Shown here piece by piece: positions 3,172-64,000 of a stretch of DNA of 64,000 bases. Source of the DNA: Planctomycetota bacterium (GTDB lineage: Bacteria > Planctomycetota > JAJSAM01 > JAJVHW01); assembly GCA_024280885.1 (NCBI GenBank), contig JAJRPF010000008.1, positions 11,707 to 75,706 on the forward strand, written 5' to 3'. Below the pieces are notes generated by a model, which saw only the letters and a list, made by a program, of their open reading frames with translations, was not told where the DNA came from and did not search any database. The position numbers and the translations under genes are program-made. Position 1 is the first letter of the stretch. Each line of letters opens with the position of its first letter.

Positions 3172-4884
3172 TCACCGGATGTATGCGCGGATCACCTTGC
3201 CCGTTCTGTCCAGCAGCTTGACGCGCCCGTTCTGTGCCACGGCAACGCGCCCTCCGGCGACGTTGACGACGTTGCGCCATACGTTTCTCGCGTCGGGGAG
3301 TTCGACACGCGCTCCCGTTTCGATCTGCAGCAGTCCGGAGTCGGTGCGCACCCACGGGCCAAACCCGTTCGGCATCGCGAACGCTTGCTCGTCTCTGGCG
3401 AGTCTCGCCGTCGCGCGCGTTCCCACGATGGCGCCCGTCTCGCTGTTGACCGTGCTGTACGAGGCGGAGCCCTTCGCGAACTCGTAGACATGTACGAGGC
3501 CGGCGAGTTCGTCGAGGCGCCCCGTCGCCGTCCCGGTGACGGGGATGCTCAGGACGTCGTCGCCGGATTGCAGGTCGCGCAAACGGAGAGAGTCGTCGTC
3601 CGTCTGCTGGAACGCATGGTGCGGGCGCACCGAGAGCTTCGTCCCTGCTGGCACCTCCATCGATCGCCCGGCCCACTGAACGGACGTGTGGCTGCTACCG
3701 TCCTTTTCGCGGCCTGACCATGACGAGCCCCACCACGCGTCGTTCTGGCCGCGCCAGCCTGCGCGGTGTTTCTCCATGACCTGGCTCTCGGCGCTGAGCT
3801 GATCCCAGGAGCGGCTCTTCACCGACAGTCCGTCGGTCGGCTCGACCCAGCGCATCACTGCACGCTTCACGTCGTTGGCGTTGGAACCCGGCCAGCGAAA
3901 GAGATCGCACTCCCAGACGCGGAACGTCCCTGCGGCGGTCCACGCGGGTTCGGCCGGGATCACGTACGTACCGTCTACGACGTGCACTGCGCCCGACTCG
4001 ACGTTTACGATCCACACATGTGCCCGGCGTGCTCCAAACCGCTTCACATGCAAGGCGAGGTAGCGTCCGTCTGGCGACGGGTCGATCCGGTAGATATTCA
4101 CGTCCTCATCGCCGGGCACGAAGCTGGTGTGAGCTTCGACGGTCGCGATTGCCGCGGCCCCCGTCGGGACGCCGATGCAGATCGGGATCAGCAGCGCGAG
4201 GGCCCACTTCCTGACGAGCGAACGACTGTGGATGGGTCCGCGCGTGAAAGCGACGAGCGAACCGGCCAGAAGCAGCGCGCTGATGGTCGCCGGGACGGCG
4301 ACGAGGATCGTGTCGCCCGCGTCGATCCCGAGTGCCCAGAAGTCGATGCTCCACATCGCGAACGCCGGAGCTCCGACGGTGGCGACGCCCGCGACCGTTG
4401 CGGCGAATCCGCGGGGGAGGAGCGTGGAGAAGAAGAGGGCCGCGAACGCGGGGACGAGCGCGATGGGAGTTCGGGCGATCGCCTCGCCGCTTGCGCCTTG
4501 CATTGCCGTGTTGGCGGCGCCGCTGGCGCGCAGAGCGTAGAGCGCTGTTGTGACGGTCAACGCGTACACACCGAATGCGAGCGTCGCGACGACGAGGTGT
4601 GTGACCTTCGCGGCCCAGATCCGACCGAGGCCCGTCGGGAGACTTGCGAGAGCGTCCATCCGGCCGGTGGAGACATCGCTTGCCACCAGGTCAGAAGCGA
4701 TGAGCAGCCCGCAGAGCGCGGCTGCCGCCGTCCCGAACCAGCGCGCGGTCGATGCGCCGTACGTGTAGTGCCCGAAGAACTCCTCGTAGGCGATCAGGGC
4801 GAGGGGGGCGATCACGGCGAGCACGACGATGAGCGCGCGCGTGTCGCGGGCTTCTCTGCGGAGGAGGGGCAGGAAGGTCCGCAT
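3172..4884 (-). CDS. ABC-2-type permease fused to a C-terminal extracytoplasmic PD40/TolB-like beta-propeller domain
   Basis: N-terminal ~250 aa is a multi-TM region. C-terminal ~320 aa contains IYRIDPSPDGRYLALHV. Paralogous to the next gene. Confidence 0.7.
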   Translation of the reverse strand: MRTFLPLLRREARDTRALIVVLAVIAPLALIAYEEFFGHYTYGASTARWFGTAAAALCGLLIASDLVASDVSTGRMDALASLPTGLGRIWAAKVTHLVVATLAFGVYALTVTTALYALRASGAANTAMQGASGEAIARTPIALVPAFAALFFSTLLPRGFAATVAGVATVGAPAFAMWSIDFWALGIDAGDTILVAVPATISALLLAGSLVAFTRGPIHSRSLVRKWALALLIPICIGVPTGAAAIATVEAHTSFVPGDEDVNIYRIDPSPDGRYLALHVKRFGARRAHVWIVNVESGAVHVVDGTYVIPAEPAWTAAGTFRVWECDLFRWPGSNANDVKRAVMRWVEPTDGLSVKSRSWDQLSAESQVMEKHRAGWRGQNDAWWGSSWSGREKDGSSHTSVQWAGRSMEVPAGTKLSVRPHHAFQQTDDDSLRLRDLQSGDDVLSIPVTGTATGRLDELAGLVHVYEFAKGSASYSTVNSETGAIVGTRATARLARDEQAFAMPNGFGPWVRTDSGLLQIETGARVELPDARNVWRNVVNVAGGRVAVAQNGRVKLLDRTGKVIRAYIR

Positions 4885-41322: not shown

Positions 41323-41706
41323 TCAGCCCTCGGAACGGGTCATGAGCCACCCGATACTACCGACCACGCCGACTAGCGGCAGAGAGGCGACACAGCACCA
41401 GAGCGTGCGCCGCAGGGCGTGAAATGGCTCGTCCCAATCGCGACTCCGGAACCACAGTTTCCAACTCGCGAGGATCGAGATCACGCACAGCACAGGTATC
41501 GACTGCATCCAGGTCCAGTACGCCGAGGTGGGGTCGCCCCACGCGCCCGGCACCGGGAAGTACGTCGCGTTCAAGATCGTCACGGGAACGGAGCCCGTGC
41601 CCAGTAGCACACACCCCACCGTGACGCATAACGGAACGGTGATCGGCTGGCGTTCAGGTGACAGGTCCACGGCGTACGATCGCCGATTGCGCTCCTCATA
41701 TGTCAT
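41323..41706 (-). CDS. small membrane protein (3 TM)
   Basis: Hydrophobic segments. Its start codon lies inside repeat R1. Confidence 0.4.
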   Translation of the reverse strand: MTYEERNRRSYAVDLSPERQPITVPLCVTVGCVLLGTGSVPVTILNATYFPVPGAWGDPTSAYWTWMQSIPVLCVISILASWKLWFRSRDWDEPFHALRRTLWCCVASLPLVGVVGSIGWLMTRSEG

Positions 41707-41926
41707 ACCGAGTCAGGCTCAATTCGTCGGATTGAACGCTCCGCACCTTGCCAGGCTCGTCGCCCTCCCGAGCGGAGTTCAACGCACGTTGCCCCGGCGA
41801 CGCTCGTCCGCGTGTAGAGTCCTGAGCGACGTTGAGAGGCGCAACGAGGTGGTCGACAGGCTGGCGACCCTGGTCGAGAGTGGAGAGTTGAGACCGCCGA
41901 AGCGAGCTTGGCACAGCATGCCGAGG
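41697..41926. repeat. dispersed repeat family copy R1 (~230 bp)
   Basis: Starts catatgtcataccgagtcaggctc, ends gttgagaccgccgaagcgagcttggcacagcatgccgag. Homologous over its length to R4 (47450-47700); the 5' ~60 bp also match R3 and R2. Confidence 0.6.
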
Positions 41927-45890: not shown

Positions 45891-46301
45891 CTAAGCGAAG
45901 TCCGCGAGTCGGCGGAGGATCGCGGTCAGCGCGCCGGCGTGGCGGGCGGACCGAAGCGTGCCTTCGCAGAAGCGCTCCTTGCGCACGTAGGTGGTGATCA
46001 GCTTGCGCAGCGTGTCGATCGTTGCGGCGTGTAGGGCCGACGGGTCTTTGTGCAGCCGCTGCGCCTCGTCTTGCCACGCGGGCCAGTCGAAATCGTAGAC
46101 CCATTTGTGTGCGTACGCGCGTTCCACGAATTCGTTCTCGACGCGGTCCGAGAGCATGTGCGGCAGCGTGAGCACTCCGTCGTCTCCCGGCGGTGGTTCG
46201 TGCCACCGGTCGGTCGTGGGGCTCGCCATCTCCGGGAGGAGTTCGGCCAGTGCGGCGATAGCCTCGGGACGGGGCGTCCAGTCAGGTTCCTTCTGCGTCA
46301 T
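45891..46301 (-). CDS. hypothetical protein
   Basis: 136 aa with normal composition (Trp-rich WVYDFDWPAWQDEAQ). Starts 27 bp from R3. Confidence 0.5.
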   Translation of the reverse strand: MTQKEPDWTPRPEAIAALAELLPEMASPTTDRWHEPPPGDDGVLTLPHMLSDRVENEFVERAYAHKWVYDFDWPAWQDEAQRLHKDPSALHAATIDTLRKLITTYVRKERFCEGTLRSARHAGALTAILRRLADFA

Positions 46302-46327
46302 CGAGTGATGCTACGTGTCAGACCGCG

Positions 46328-46500
46328 CCATGTCATACCGAGCCAGACTCAACTCGTCGGTTTGGACACTCCGCTTCTCGTCAGGCTCGTCGGCCCGCTG
46401 CGCGAAGTGCCCGCTGGAAGCCGCGATCGTCCCGCACCATGACGACCCGTCTGGCGCGCCTCGCGCACGCCGGGTGACGCGGGCTACCCCGTGTGCTTTC
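46328..46500. repeat. dispersed repeat family copy R3 (~170 bp)
   Basis: ccatgtcataccgagccagactcaactcgtcgg...gtcaggctcgtcggcccgctgcgcgaagtgcccgctggaagccgcgatcgtcccgcaccatg. The 5' part matches R1; the central part matches R4. Confidence 0.6.
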
Positions 46501-50475: not shown

Positions 50476-51012
50476 CTACTTCTTCTTGCGTGCAGTCTTC
50501 TTCGCAGCCTTCTTCTTCGCAGGCTTGCGTGTCGCCTTCTTAGCAGCCTTCTTCTTGGCAGGCTTGCGCGTTGCCTTCTTGGCTGCCTTCTTCTTGGCGG
50601 GCTTGCGCGTCGCCTTCTTAGCAGCCTTCTTCTTGGCAGGCTTACGCGTTGCCTTCTTGGCTGCCTTCTTCTTCTTGGCGGGCTTACGCGTCGCCTTCTT
50701 AGCGGCCTTCTTCTTGGCAGGCTTGCGCGTTGCCTTCTTGGCTGCCTTCTTCTTGGCGGGCTTGCGCGTCGCCTTCTTAGCAGCCTTCTTCTTGGCAGGC
50801 TTGCGCGTTGCCTTCTTGGCTGCCTTCTTCTTCTTGGCGGGCTTACGCGTCGCCTTCTTAGCAGCCTTCTTCTTGGCAGGCTTGCGCGTTGCCTTCTTGG
50901 CTGCTTTCTTCTTCTTGGCGGGCTTGCGCGTCGCCTTCTTCGCAGCCTTCTTCTTAGCCGGCTTGCGGGTCGCCTTCTTGGCGGCCTTCTTTGCTGCCTT
51001 CTTCGCGGCCAT
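50476..51012 (-). CDS. histone H1-like / AlgP-like Lys-Ala tandem-repeat DNA-binding protein
   Basis: About 12 tandem KKATRKPAKKK(K)AA units with 39/42-bp DNA periodicity. AGGAGG 6 nt upstream of the ATG. Confidence 0.8.
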   Translation of the reverse strand: MAAKKAAKKAAKKATRKPAKKKAAKKATRKPAKKKKAAKKATRKPAKKKAAKKATRKPAKKKKAAKKATRKPAKKKAAKKATRKPAKKKAAKKATRKPAKKKAAKKATRKPAKKKKAAKKATRKPAKKKAAKKATRKPAKKKAAKKATRKPAKKKAAKKATRKPAKKKAAKKTARKKK

Positions 51013-53079: not shown

Positions 53080-53901
53080 TCACTCCTCGGTCGCGCGGAA
53101 GCGCTCCGCATCGCCAAGCCACTTCGCGAGCAGCTCGTCGACCTTGCCGCCCGGTCGGGTTTCGGCGGCGAGGAACGCGTCGAGTGCGGGCGCAAGTTCT
53201 GAGCCCAGCGGCAATGCGACTGCGTAGAGCTCGATCCCGAGTTCCGTGTCGATGATGCGCGTCGTCTCGGGATGCTGCGCGTGCAGGTTCACGATCGAGA
53301 CCATGTCGTAGACGAGCGCGTGCGCGCGTCCGGCAGCGACCTCGGCGGCGGCGTCCACTTCACGGTCGTAGACGCGGATCTGCGCGTTCGGAAATCGTGT
53401 CTCCGCCTTCTCTTCTCCCGTCGTCTTGCGCTGCACCGCGATCACAACGTCATCGCCCTCGAGTGCCTCGAGGCCCGCAGCGTCCGCCACGCGCTGCGTC
53501 GAGACGAGCACACCCGTCGCCACGCGGGCGTAGGGACGCGAGAAGAGCACCACGTGCGCGCGCTCCTTCGTCCGGCTCATCCCGGAGGCGATGGCGTCGA
53601 TGCGCCCCGCCTGCAGGTCCGGGATCAATGCCGAGAAGTCCCGGCTACTGAAGGTGACCTCGCGGTTGATGTGCGCGCCGAACGCCCGCATGAGGTCGAT
53701 GTCGAAGCCCTCGAGCGATCCGTCGGTTGCGACCGACTCGAAGGGCGGGAAGGCGGCCTCGGTGCCCACGACGAGCGCATCGCTTCCGGCGGACTTTGTG
53801 CAGGCGGCAAGGCAGACGAGGGCGAGCAGGAGCGTGACAATGCGGCGCATGGCCGACAGCCTAACGCGACGCCCGGTCCGAAGCCCCCGCCGAGCGAACA
53901 A
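53080..53901 (-). CDS. amino-acid ABC transporter substrate-binding lipoprotein
   Basis: Lipobox LVCLAAC. Periplasmic binding protein family 3 motifs. Start may instead be the internal ATG at 53850. Confidence 0.8.
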   Translation of the reverse strand: MFARRGLRTGRRVRLSAMRRIVTLLLALVCLAACTKSAGSDALVVGTEAAFPPFESVATDGSLEGFDIDLMRAFGAHINREVTFSSRDFSALIPDLQAGRIDAIASGMSRTKERAHVVLFSRPYARVATGVLVSTQRVADAAGLEALEGDDVVIAVQRKTTGEEKAETRFPNAQIRVYDREVDAAAEVAAGRAHALVYDMVSIVNLHAQHPETTRIIDTELGIELYAVALPLGSELAPALDAFLAAETRPGGKVDELLAKWLGDAERFRATEE

Positions 53902-54194
53902 CAGAGGCCGTGGCGTGCCCGAAATCGCGTGCCTGGCTCAATGTTCTCGGCGCGATACCGGGTCTCACCCTCGTCAGCCCGGATCGCCGCGCTGAAGAAT
54001 CTGAGCCTGGCACGACGTTTCGGGCAGCGAAGAGCGTGCTCCAACTGCCGCTCTTCCGGACGGTCTCCTGCACGGAGCCCCCGGCCCGCGACTCCCGGAG
54101 CCGCCCCCTACAGTCGCCCCCTCGGCAGTGCCGATCCTCTAATGCGCACGGAACGGCCGGGCCGTCCCTCGGTGCCGAGCGCAGGAGAAGACTG

Positions 54195-60798: not shown

Positions 60799-62223
<1,425 letters not shown>

Positions 62224-62227
62224 TCCT

Positions 62228-62623
62228 GTGAGCACCCTGACCTGCCGCATCGTCTCTCCGGAGCGCCCCCTCTTCGAGGGCGAGGTCGATCGCCTCGTCG
62301 CCCCCGGCGCGATGGGCGAACTCGGCATCTACCCGCTGCACGCACCGCTCATCTCGAAGCTCGGTCCGGGCGTCCTGCGTCTGCACCAGGGCAGCGACGT
62401 GAAGCGCATGGCGATCCGCGGCGGCTTCGTCGAGGTGAAGGACGACGACGTGATCCTGCTCGTGACCCACGCCGTCCTGCCCGAGGACGTGGACAAGCAC
62501 ACCGCTGAGCGCGATCTCGCGAACACCATCGAAGAACTGCAGCACCCGAGCACGCAGGAGCGCTTCGACGAGTTGCTCGAACAACGCACCTGGTTCGAAG
62601 TGTGCGTCCGCATGCACGCGTGA
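62228..62623 (+). CDS. atpC: ATP synthase F1 subunit epsilon
   Basis: GTG start 4 nt after the atpD stop. Epsilon fold. Confidence 0.9.
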   Translation: MSTLTCRIVSPERPLFEGEVDRLVAPGAMGELGIYPLHAPLISKLGPGVLRLHQGSDVKRMAIRGGFVEVKDDDVILLVTHAVLPEDVDKHTAERDLANTIEELQHPSTQERFDELLEQRTWFEVCVRMHA

Positions 62624-62630
62624 TGGCCTG

Positions 62631-62649
62631 ATCCGCGCGTAGCGCGGAT
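62631..62649. terminator. hairpin atccgcgc-gta-gcgcggat 8 bp after the atpC stop
   Basis: Perfect 8-bp stem followed by a G/T-rich tract tgttgtgtttgtg. Putative operon terminator. Confidence 0.5.
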
Positions 62650-62663
62650 GGGGGCATCACGCC

Positions 62664-63345
62664 GCTGTGTTGTGTTTGTGCCGACTCCGTCGGCACCCCT
62701 CACTTCGTTCGGGTGTTCGGCTTCGGTCGCGGCTCCGGCTGCTTCAACCGGGTCTGCGCTCGGAGTTCGTTGCCGCGCCTCGGGCCGTGACCACGCCGCG
62801 TGAGTTCGCGCGTCGCGAGGTCGGGTTTCGCAGGCGGAATCCGCTCCCTGCGCCTCACTGCGATGCTGTGTTGCGTTTGTGCCGACTCCGTCGTCACGCT
62901 CGCTCTCGCTCGCATGTTCGGCTCCCGTCGCGGCTCCGACTGCTTCAACCGGGGCTGCGATCGGAGTTCGTTGCCGCGCCTCGGGCCGTGACCACGTCGT
63001 GTGAGTTCGCGCGTCGCGAGATCGGGTTTCGCAGGCGGAATCCGCTCCCTGCGCCTCACTGCGATTGTCACGCTGAGTGCTGCGCACACAGCCCGCCAAT
63101 CGCTTTGTTGTGTTGGTGCCGACTCCGTCGTCACGCTCGCTCTCGCTCGCATGTTCGGCTCCCGTCGCGGCTCCGACTGCTTCAACCGGGGCTGCGATCG
63201 GATGTCGTTGCCTCGCCTCGGGCGGTGACCACGTCGTGTGAGTTCGCGCGTCGCGAGATCGGGTTTCGCAGGCGGAATCCGCTCCCTGCGCCTCACTGCG
63301 ATTGTCACGCTGAGTGCTGCGCACACAGCCCGCCAATCGCTTTCG
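62664..63345. repeat. three-copy tandem array of a 201/237-bp unit immediately downstream of the atp operon
   Basis: Unit anchor gccgactccgtcg at about 62680, 62881 and 63118 (periods 201 and 237 bp). The 3' ~150 bp of each unit are near-identical. Confidence 0.8.
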
Positions 63346-63516
63346 TTCCCGGCGTTGTCGAGAGGGTGGGGCTGCCTTGCCGCCGAGCCTTCCTACCCCT
63401 CGCCGCGCGAAGAAATTGAGCCTGGCACGGCACTTCGAAGACCGCCCGCACCGTGCCTCCCTTCGCCCTCTTCAGCGCCACTCCTTCACAGACTGGCTCC
63501 CGATCGTCTCAGACGC

Positions 63517-64000
63517 TCACTGGAAGAGGTCCGTGAACGCTTCCGATGCGGTGCGACCAACGATCGTCACGTCGTCGTTTCCGACGTTGGACGGAAGCGA
63601 GGAAATCTGCGGGCGCCCGAGAACCACATGCAGCGAACCACTTCCGTCACCGTTTAGGTCTGTCAGCCCTGATCCCAGCAGCAGGTCCTGGCGTCCATCT
63701 CCGTTGAGATCGACCGCTCCGAGGAACCTGCCGATGAGGTCAGTCTCTGCGACGCCGGAGATGATCGCAGATGCGAGCGTTGCGCTGCGGCTGGCGATGT
63801 TGGGGCCACCCGCAAACACGAAGACGCCGCCCTGACCGGACAGCTGGCCCTCGTAGAGTGAGTCTGCGACGATCAGGTCCACGTTCCCGTCGCCGTTCAC
63901 GTCCGCGAGAACGATCGAGTCTCCAAAAGTCGGGAGGACGCTCTGCGTGTCCGCCGTGAACACGAGATCGGCGGCGAGCCGCGTCGTCGAGCGCGCCGCC
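63517..64000 (-). CDS. FG-GAP/integrin-alpha-like beta-propeller repeat protein (partial; N-terminus beyond window end)
   Basis: VLADVNGDGNVDLIV, VDLNGDGRQDLLLG, TDLNGDGSGSLHVV. The minus-strand frame stays open to position 64000. Confidence 0.7.
   Translation of the reverse strand, partial: AARSTTRLAADLVFTADTQSVLPTFGDSIVLADVNGDGNVDLIVADSLYEGQLSGQGGVFVFAGGPNIASRSATLASAIISGVAETDLIGRFLGAVDLNGDGRQDLLLGSGLTDLNGDGSGSLHVVLGRPQISSLPSNVGNDDVTIVGRTASEAFTDLFQ

Follow-up and report, generated by a model that had tools for sequence, protein, structure and literature searches.

The window analysed here is a stretch of 64,000 nucleotides (nt) with a GC content of 67%, taken from contig JAJRPF010000008.1 of a Planctomycetota bacterium (assembly GCA_024280885.1), and the subject of this work is a tandem repeat array that lies between the end of its atp operon and a convergent gene. 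Tandem Repeats Finder and a repeat finder revealed three head-to-tail copies in the array. Each copy contains a module of 201 nt, which we call the A unit and which carries a hairpin (H1) near its 5' end, and in copies 2 and 3 the A unit is followed by a tail (B) with a second hairpin. The array is continued by a linker and by part of a palindromic inverted-repeat (IR) element. The features of the locus are as follows.

62228–62623, plus strand: atpC (ATP synthase epsilon), the last gene of the atp operon; stop codon TGA at 62621–62623; homologues carry PF02823
62631–62649, plus strand: strong hairpin ATCCGCGC-GTA-GCGCGGAT, -23.1 kcal/mol, folding z = -4.5, 8 nt past the atpC stop
62664–62864, plus strand: copy 1, an A unit of 201 nt without a complete B tail; 5' part of 'type I' (CACCCCTCACTTCGTTCGGGTG)
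62678–62696, no strand: H1 hairpin of copy 1, GTGCCGAC-TCC-GTCGGCAC, perfect 8-bp stem, z = -5.3
62865–63101, plus strand: copy 2, 237 nt, composed of A unit 62865–63065 and B tail 63066–63101; 5' part of 'type II'
62879–62897, no strand: H1 hairpin of copy 2, GTGCCGAC-TCC-GTCGTCAC, one mismatch
63072–63092, no strand: B hairpin of copy 2, GCTGAGTGC-TGC-GCACACAGC
63102–63338, plus strand: copy 3, 237 nt, composed of A unit 63102–63302 and B tail 63303–63338
63116–63134, no strand: H1 hairpin of copy 3 (repeat finder and covariation)
63309–63329, no strand: B hairpin of copy 3, same sequence as 63072–63092
63339–63397, plus strand: linker from the array to the palindromic element, resembling the linkers of loci L010, L006 and L009 (TTCCC..G.C..CGA..GGGTGG)
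63398–63440, plus strand: right half only of the IR element, with AATTGAGCCTGGCACGG at 63414–63430; nhmmer E = 6e-8
63517–64000, minus strand: gene of an FG-GAP repeat protein (PF01839, E = 7e-10), which converges on the array and runs toward the window end

The initial annotation had described three tandem copies of a 201/237-bp unit with anchors at about 62680, 62881 and 63118, and both repeat programs and the alignment agreed with this description, the anchors being the hairpin GTGCCGAC-TCC-GTCG(G/T)CAC at 62678, 62879 and 63116. Tandem Repeats Finder reported two overlapping arrays with periods of 201 (62664–63065) and 237 (62865–63343), which the repeat finder split into copies starting at 62664, 62865 and 63102, and the significance of the repeat was far above chance (E = 1e-78 to 1e-122). 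In the three-way alignment, copies 2 and 3 were 97% identical (7 differing positions), while copies 1 and 2 were about 91% identical over 201 nt (16 differing positions) and about 96% identical over the 3' 137 nt of copy 1. The difference between the two periods is the 36-nt tail B (TGTCACGCTGAGTGCTGCGCACACAGCCCGCCAATC), which copies 2 and 3 have and the junction of copies 1 and 2 lacks. Since this junction (GCGAT followed by GCTGTGTTGCG) retains the left arm of the B hairpin, the sequence indicates that the shorter period results from a deletion of the right half of B. No further A unit was detected elsewhere in the 64-kb window by BLAST or nhmmer. The strong hairpin between atpC and the array occupies the place that a B hairpin takes at other loci. 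It had been called the atp terminator, and a strong hairpin is indeed there, but it has no U-tract and the terminator scan was negative, so that its role as a terminator is conjectural.

The placement of the array after the atp operon had been considered notable, but this was not supported by the distribution of the unit. The AtpC protein of the window has a best database match of 89% identity and a nearest cultured match, in Thermogutta, of only 39%; one related contig is labelled Planctomycetota, and the lineage is poorly sampled. In five relatives whose AtpC is 74–85% identical (L001–L005), DNA homology to the window spans the operon and ends exactly at the atpC stop (62623–62624), and the A unit is absent after atpC. 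Downstream of this point the five relatives show no synteny, hence no empty site can be defined. On the other hand, the A unit (~200 nt) was found at about 19 other loci on independent metagenome and metagenome-assembled genome contigs, some of which may be overlapping assemblies of one locus, and the genes flanking these loci are unrelated to each other. The presence of the unit at unrelated loci, together with its absence after atpC of the relatives, shows that the array is not tied to the atp operon. We conclude that the array is one locus of a dispersed, modular intergenic repeat family in an uncultured planctomycete-like lineage.

These loci were collected in two ways. The exact 22-mer GGGTTTCGCAGGCGGAATCC GC matched two metagenome contigs, L006 and L007, and gave no match in the species-representative genomes. 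On L006 the order is B, a truncated A unit, B, a full A unit and B, following the stop codon of a TldD/PmbA-like gene, and on L007 the A unit lies directly against the start of a divergent gene for a CPBP-protease-like protein and is cut off by the end of the contig. Protein databases were also searched with two translated frames of the array, as gene callers predict open reading frames (ORFs) over open repeats, and these searches returned 16 repeat-derived ORFs (P0031–P0046), three of them on one 637-kb NCBI contig and others on contigs of 360, 125, 101, 96 and 90 kb. Three repeat-derived ORFs were studied as DNA (L008, L009 and L010), and the NCBI-derived P0031, P0032, P0033 and P0035 were used as back-translations. 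A check against the real L009 DNA revealed that minimum-distance back-translation is biased to the reference at third positions, and only amino-acid-determined positions were used. When the contigs of species-representative genomes were searched with patterns from the pseudo-peptide alignment, 28 pattern matches were obtained, none of which was confirmed by tblastn; two patterns gave no match in viral contigs, and blastn gave none in plasmids. A unit numbers range from one to three per locus, and at least two tandem units are present at at least eight loci (the window, L006, L010, P0031, P0032, P0035, P0039 and P0040).

This distribution bears on the question of whether the array was wrongly expanded or collapsed during assembly, and the initial annotation had named a repeat unique to this assembly as the finding that would overturn it. 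Related contigs do often end within the unit (L007 and L008), the perfect palindrome at the start of L009 is suspicious, and the window may in truth have more or fewer than three copies. However, independent assemblies hold the unit, often in tandem, and arrays of at least two copies occur in NCBI, ENA and JGI assemblies alike. Furthermore, the three copies in the window differ from one another at the 7 and 16 positions given above, by the 36-nt B deletion and by the 5' subtype, which makes an assembly artefact very improbable. A CRISPR array was rejected as well, as the whole 201/237-nt period is repeated at 91–97% identity and there are no unique spacers.

We then examined whether the array could encode protein. 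All frames are open across it, and the plus-strand ORFs and the basic minus-frame peptide of the initial annotation do exist, although the first ORF contains five Cys residues, not four as had been reported for each. A coding array would specify either three small Cys peptides on the plus strand (MSSRVARSGFAGG...) or a basic repeat protein on the minus strand (...RRRERIPPAKP...). Gene callers have predicted ORFs over other copies too, and the minus-frame peptide can be aligned across loci. Nevertheless, a codon-usage check of both frames revealed no coding signature: the GC content of the array is 0.62–0.72 in every codon phase, whereas real genes in this window have values of about 0.66/0.40/0.90 at codon positions 1/2/3, as atpD does. 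Among nine real DNA copies from five contigs, the variable columns are spread evenly over the three phases (22/24/25, p = 0.9), compared with 29/20/112 for atpD between the window and one relative, and the blocks with the strongest conservation show no variation in any phase. Neighbouring copies in P0035, P0039 and P0042 are read in different frames, the minus-strand ORFs run out of frame into atpC or other real genes, and no Pfam domain is recorded for the repeat-derived ORFs in public protein collections. From the flat phase GC, the even substitutions and the frame changes between copies, it follows that the array is non-coding on both strands and in all frames, as the initial annotation had favoured. 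The openness of all frames is the usual effect of high GC content, to which the periods contribute by being divisible by 3. The initial annotation had pointed this property out; it is coincidental, as other arrays have different periods and shift frame between copies. A protein-coding role is thus extremely improbable, and RiPP-like peptide genes (ribosomally synthesized and post-translationally modified peptides) were rejected for the same lack of a coding signature; together, the coding and the assembly-artefact explanations are effectively excluded. The 16 annotation-free 'proteins' P0031–P0046 (58–280 aa) are spurious: the non-coding repeat seeded these ORFs, which translate it in various frames.

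The structural examination of the loci revealed a common order of modules. In L010, a gene stop is followed 10 nt on by a B hairpin and then by an A unit, a B-like hairpin, a second A unit, a linker of about 65 nt, an IR element of about 150 nt and a convergent gene. The window has the same order without the left arm of the IR element, which is deleted at the array locus (the full element is about 160 nt). With L006, these loci show B, A(n), linker and IR as recurring modules, and copies occur at non-orthologous intergenic loci within and between related genomes, as expected for an interspersed repeat. The IR element lies downstream of the A unit in the window, L006, L009 and L010 and in the translations of P0038, P0040 and P0044. 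One further copy stands by itself in the window:

53883–54042, no strand: complete, solitary IR element; nhmmer E = 6e-41; folds as one long hairpin, z = -5.8

The arms of this copy are GCCCGAAA..GCGTGCCWGGCTCAAT and ATTGAGCCTGGCACG..TTTCGGGC, and it lies upstream of a minus-strand solute-binding-protein gene (53080–53901). Its solitary occurrence shows that the IR module is itself a dispersed repeat. IR elements fold with z values of -5.8 to -7.7, and their inner arms differ between loci yet stay complementary. A sigma-54 promoter in the IR arms (TGGCACG-N4-TTCG) was considered and rejected: the sigma-54 consensus has TGGCAC at -24 and TTGC at -12, with GC at fixed spacing, and all copies have CG replacing the conserved -12 GC.

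Comparison of the A units indicated how the arrays may have formed. Identity is 92–97% within arrays and 77–89% between loci, and since the copies of one array resemble each other more than those of different loci, the arrays grow or are partly homogenised locally. The 5' segment occurs as 'type I' in copy 1, L007, L009 and L010 and as 'type II' in copies 2 and 3, L006 and L008, and the 3' two-thirds of copy 1 are nearly identical to copy 2 despite the different 5' subtype. Two blocks of 20–35 nt, GTCGCGGCTCCGRCTGCTTCAAC and GGGTTTCGCAGGCGGAATCC, hardly vary in any of the three phases among about 27 copies, some real and some back-translated. In the ORF P0045 (residues 10–49 versus 147–216) a partial unit appears to stand in opposite orientation upstream of a full unit, and inverted arrangements thus probably exist at some loci.

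Covariation across the other loci, which the initial annotation had proposed as a check, supported two hairpins and not the remaining predicted pairs. An unbiased helix scan over real and strictly back-translated copies picked out H1 only. This hairpin (GTGCCGAC-TCC-GTCGGCAC) is 95% paired, with three pairs changed on both sides and a value as high in 1 of 500 shuffles, while slid controls reached a pairing of at most 62%; the stem is kept in the variants GTGGCGAC/GTCGCCAC in real DNA and GTGTCGCC/GGCGACAC in back-translated copies. The B hairpin is 91% paired, also with three pairs changed on both sides, and its covariation was reached by none of 500 shuffles. These compensatory changes in the aligned sequences indicate that H1 and B are under selection. 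By contrast, the other 55 pairs of the RNAalifold fold, outside H1 and B, were no better than shuffles (equalled in 120–224 of 500), and the RNAalifold covariation term was about 0. Folding of the whole unit was barely better than shuffles as well (z = -1.8 on the plus strand and -0.9 on the minus strand). A central hairpin that uses G-U pairs is stable on the plus strand in the window (z = -3.8) and in L009 (z = -5.5), but in the L010 copies it folds better on the opposite strand, and the loci disagree in the strand to which G-U asymmetry and local folding point. No structure that accounts for the conservation of GTCGCGGCTCCGRCTGCTTCAAC and GGGTTTCGCAGGCGGAATCC was found, and a T-loop or tRNA-like reading of GGTTTCGCAGGCGGAATCC was rejected, ARAGORN being negative.

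The position of the element relative to genes was then compared. The first hairpin lies 8, 1, 10 and 5 nt past a co-directional stop codon in the window, L006, L010 and L008, respectively, and the element thus starts within about 10 nt of a co-directional stop at four of the five loci with a readable 5' flank. In the window and in L010 it fills the gap between convergent genes. This location just past co-directional stops, and between convergent genes at two loci, makes a co-transcribed 3' untranslated region (UTR) the most likely setting, and at the present locus the array is probably co-transcribed with atp as its 3' UTR, with the strand and the RNA role read from position. At L008, an uncalled 75-codon ORF on the minus strand (131–358; MRLDPDILELESDCHRIVELICSERVDDDEIDRR…) with a coding-like GC of 0.68/0.47/0.79 ends 5 nt before H1, and the database gene call at this locus is the spurious ORF P0037 on the opposite strand.

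Based on these observations, we suggest, with a probability of roughly 55%, that one module of an interspersed mosaic repeat has been amplified in tandem at this site, and that this repeat, which is non-coding and specific to the lineage, is similar in kind to BOX elements and bacterial interspersed mosaic elements (BIMEs) and unrelated to them in sequence. The full element would consist of a B hairpin resembling those of repetitive extragenic palindromic (REP) sequences, one to three A units of about 200 nt with H1 first and the two near-invariant blocks, the linker, and the palindrome of about 160 nt. Unequal crossing-over, slippage or gene conversion would account for the local growth or homogenisation of the arrays. 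Transcripts of the upstream operon, in this case atp, would run into the element and carry it as an extended 3' UTR, and H1, B and the long palindrome may act in cis as 3'-end structures, that is, as exonuclease barriers, in termination, or as insulation between convergent genes. The family as a whole may have spread as a non-autonomous or selfish element.

Here, we need to consider several observations that weigh against this mosaic-repeat reading. Only about 10 real DNA copies underlie the structural tests. The co-directional placement at four of five loci is not statistically significant, and L007, where the A unit lies at the start of a divergent gene, is an exception to it. No canonical intrinsic terminator was found in 62200–64000. 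The invariant blocks GTCGCGGCTCCGRCTGCTTCAAC and GGGTTTCGCAGGCGGAATCC suggest a sequence-specific function, such as RNA or protein binding, which 3'-UTR hairpins do not explain. Finally, the search for terminal inverted repeats, target-site duplications, empty sites and an associated transposase was negative, so that mobility is deduced only from the distribution of the family.

The invariant blocks are also the starting point of the other explanations. The initial annotation had proposed a tandem small RNA (sRNA) array, and each A unit could give rise to a trans-acting sRNA or RNA sponge of about 200 nt, from its own promoter or by 3'-UTR processing, whose invariant blocks (among them the C/U-rich CUCCCUGCGCCUCAC) would be the binding sites for targets or a protein, and whose tandem copies would raise dosage, as they do in tandem sRNA arrays such as cyanobacterial NsiR1. 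This proposal is consistent with the near-invariance of both blocks at all three phases, with the covariation of H1 and B, with the plus-strand stability of the central hairpin in the window and L009, where the G-U pairs would be A-C mismatches on the other strand, and with the retention of the blocks in copies from different loci that are old, to judge from their identity of 77–89%. However, a consensus scan of 62200–64000, which covered sigma-70-like promoters, detected no promoter-like site and no canonical terminator, either in or between units. Neither did Rfam provide a match: at gathering thresholds there was none in the whole window, at E ≤ 10 only chance miRNA and snoRNA matches far under threshold appeared in 62500–63600, and ARAGORN detected no tRNA or tmRNA. 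The weak fold of the whole unit, the pairs outside H1 that shuffles equalled and the opposite strand preference of the central hairpin in L010 also count against the proposal. The sRNA array was therefore not demonstrated, and we regard it as unlikely, albeit worth keeping in view. In a related but more doubtful version, the A unit would be an undescribed class of structured non-coding RNA of about 200 nt, or an RNA-guided or RNA-templated mobile module, residing in many 3' UTRs. There, the invariant blocks may be a protein- or target-binding core (of a multi-copy regulatory RNA, a sponge, or a recombinase guide or recognition RNA), and the tandem copy number may tune dosage.

Alternatively, the element could act as DNA, as an array of binding sites for the recombinase or transposase of an unseen autonomous element or for a nucleoid or insulator protein, with hairpins forming in single-stranded DNA as in REP sequences and their REP-associated tyrosine transposases (RAYTs). 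In favour of this, no structural covariation is seen in the invariant blocks; H1, B and GCGGAATCCGC are palindromic hairpins; the TGTC/CGTC-AC tag before B is reminiscent of the tag of CGTC-type REPs (PMC3733652); and the family is dispersed, with contigs breaking inside it. Against this, no transposase or RAYT gene stands beside any copy in about 60 kb of flanking sequence, the unit measures 200 nt and not 20–40 bp, and B stems lack the initial A-T pairs of CGTC-REP stems (PMC3733652). Inverted REP dimers of the REPIN-like kind are not seen either, save for the one possible inverted partial copy in P0045. We therefore consider a DNA-level element rather improbable.

When the repeat family behind the mosaic-repeat reading was compared with known systems, its features matched the description of BOX elements point for point and those of REP/BIME and STAR more loosely; this is a likeness of kind, with no evidence of homology. 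BOX elements (boxA-boxB(n)-boxC), known from Streptococcus pneumoniae and S. suis, are built of modules, of which boxB varies in number. They are found in clusters with other repeats and more often than expected between convergent genes, the transcript of the upstream operon carries them as 3' adducts, and ORFs on both of their strands get annotated (PMC3049150). Like them, the present family is an interspersed intergenic mosaic with an internal tandem module of variable number and predicted stem-loops, its large versions are open on both strands and annotated as spurious coding sequences, and it clusters with a second repeat family. However, the present family belongs to a different phylum and a 67% GC genome, and sequence similarity was judged implausible from host phylum and base composition. 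Its repeated module is about 200 nt, much longer than boxB, which is about 45 nt, and its terminal module is a long palindrome of about 160 nt in place of a boxA/boxC pairing. Transcription is known for BOX, while the present family is known from its sequence.

With REP/BIME sequences, the family shares extragenic GC-rich hairpins of 8–9 bp (H1 and B) that carry compensatory changes, lie just after stop codons and are arranged in mosaics with other motifs. B, a 9-bp hairpin within the 237-nt unit, has TGTCAC or CGTCAC in front of it and CC(G)CCA behind it, which recalls the tag and the CCA tail seen in CGTC-type REPs, although its stem is not A-T-initiated as theirs is (PMC3733652). REPs are also palindromic units of only 20–40 bp whose GTAG or CGTC tag is unpaired, whereas the hairpins here sit in a unit of 200–240 nt with long non-palindromic conserved blocks, and the copies are direct tandems, not head-to-head or tail-to-tail dimers. 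The ~60 kb of sequence flanking the A-unit loci contain no RAYT- or transposase-like gene; a RAYT may still lie farther away. STAR elements of Staphylococcus aureus are similar in being interspersed intergenic direct repeats in variable-number tandem arrays at many loci (PMC3532100). They show no homology to the present family and have no long-palindrome partner. STAR units are also short and GC-rich in an AT-rich genome.

The IR element, with arms of about 28 nt or more and a total of about 125–160 nt, has the look of the imperfect palindromes of miniature inverted-repeat transposable elements (MITEs) and ERIC sequences, being dispersed and also solitary, but no target-site duplication or parent insertion sequence was identified for it, and the repeat finder detected no terminal inverted repeats in the A unit. 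Tandem sRNA arrays (NsiR1 in Nostoc, PrrF1/2 and OmrA/B) also consist of direct tandem non-coding units of similar size in intergenic regions. In those arrays, however, each unit has its own promoter and terminator, and the array is a single locus with orthologous conservation, whereas the A unit is dispersed at many non-orthologous loci and the scan detected neither promoter nor terminator.

Lineage-specific interspersed repeats are common in bacteria, and to our knowledge almost nothing is known about non-coding elements in Planctomycetota; the literature on planctomycete repeats yielded no earlier description specific to this family. The present results define a new family of interspersed mosaic repeats in a planctomycete-like lineage that is poorly sampled, and they remove an atp-specific regulatory device and small peptides as false leads for the array. 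The family breaks assemblies and puts spurious ORFs, at least 16 'proteins', into public protein databases. With its compensatory hairpins, its invariant blocks and its preference for positions after stop codons, it is a tractable candidate for the study of 3'-UTR elements and of repeat spread in Planctomycetota.

Several further observations were made in the course of the analysis. Contig L006 ends (3737–3776) in at least five tandem heptamers CCCCAAT, about 40 nt downstream of its IR element. At its start (620–689), contig L009 carries a perfect inverted repeat of 25 bp that encloses a copy of the H1 loop region (GCCGACGGAGTCGG). Fold-back at the palindromic H1 during assembly is the probable cause, a true long hairpin being the other option. 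Within the window, two stretches of about 90 nt at 41700–41790 and 46330–46420 are mutually homologous (…ATGTCATACCGAGYCAGRCTCAAYTCGTCGGWTTGRAC…CTCCGC…GYCAGGCTCGTCG…) and share a TTGAGCCTGG-like core with the arm of the IR element; the latter lies just upstream of the start of a minus-strand DUF6508 gene (45891–46310), and the two may be copies of a third family of repeats or have a 5' leader or operator in common. Finally, a lysine/alanine-rich repeat protein (MAAKKAAKKAAKKATRKPAKKKAAKKATRKPAKKK…) is encoded on the minus strand at 50497–50991 by a tandem repeat of 39/81/159 nt, with repeats 85–95% identical; it is a histone-H1-like or Hc2-like basic protein.

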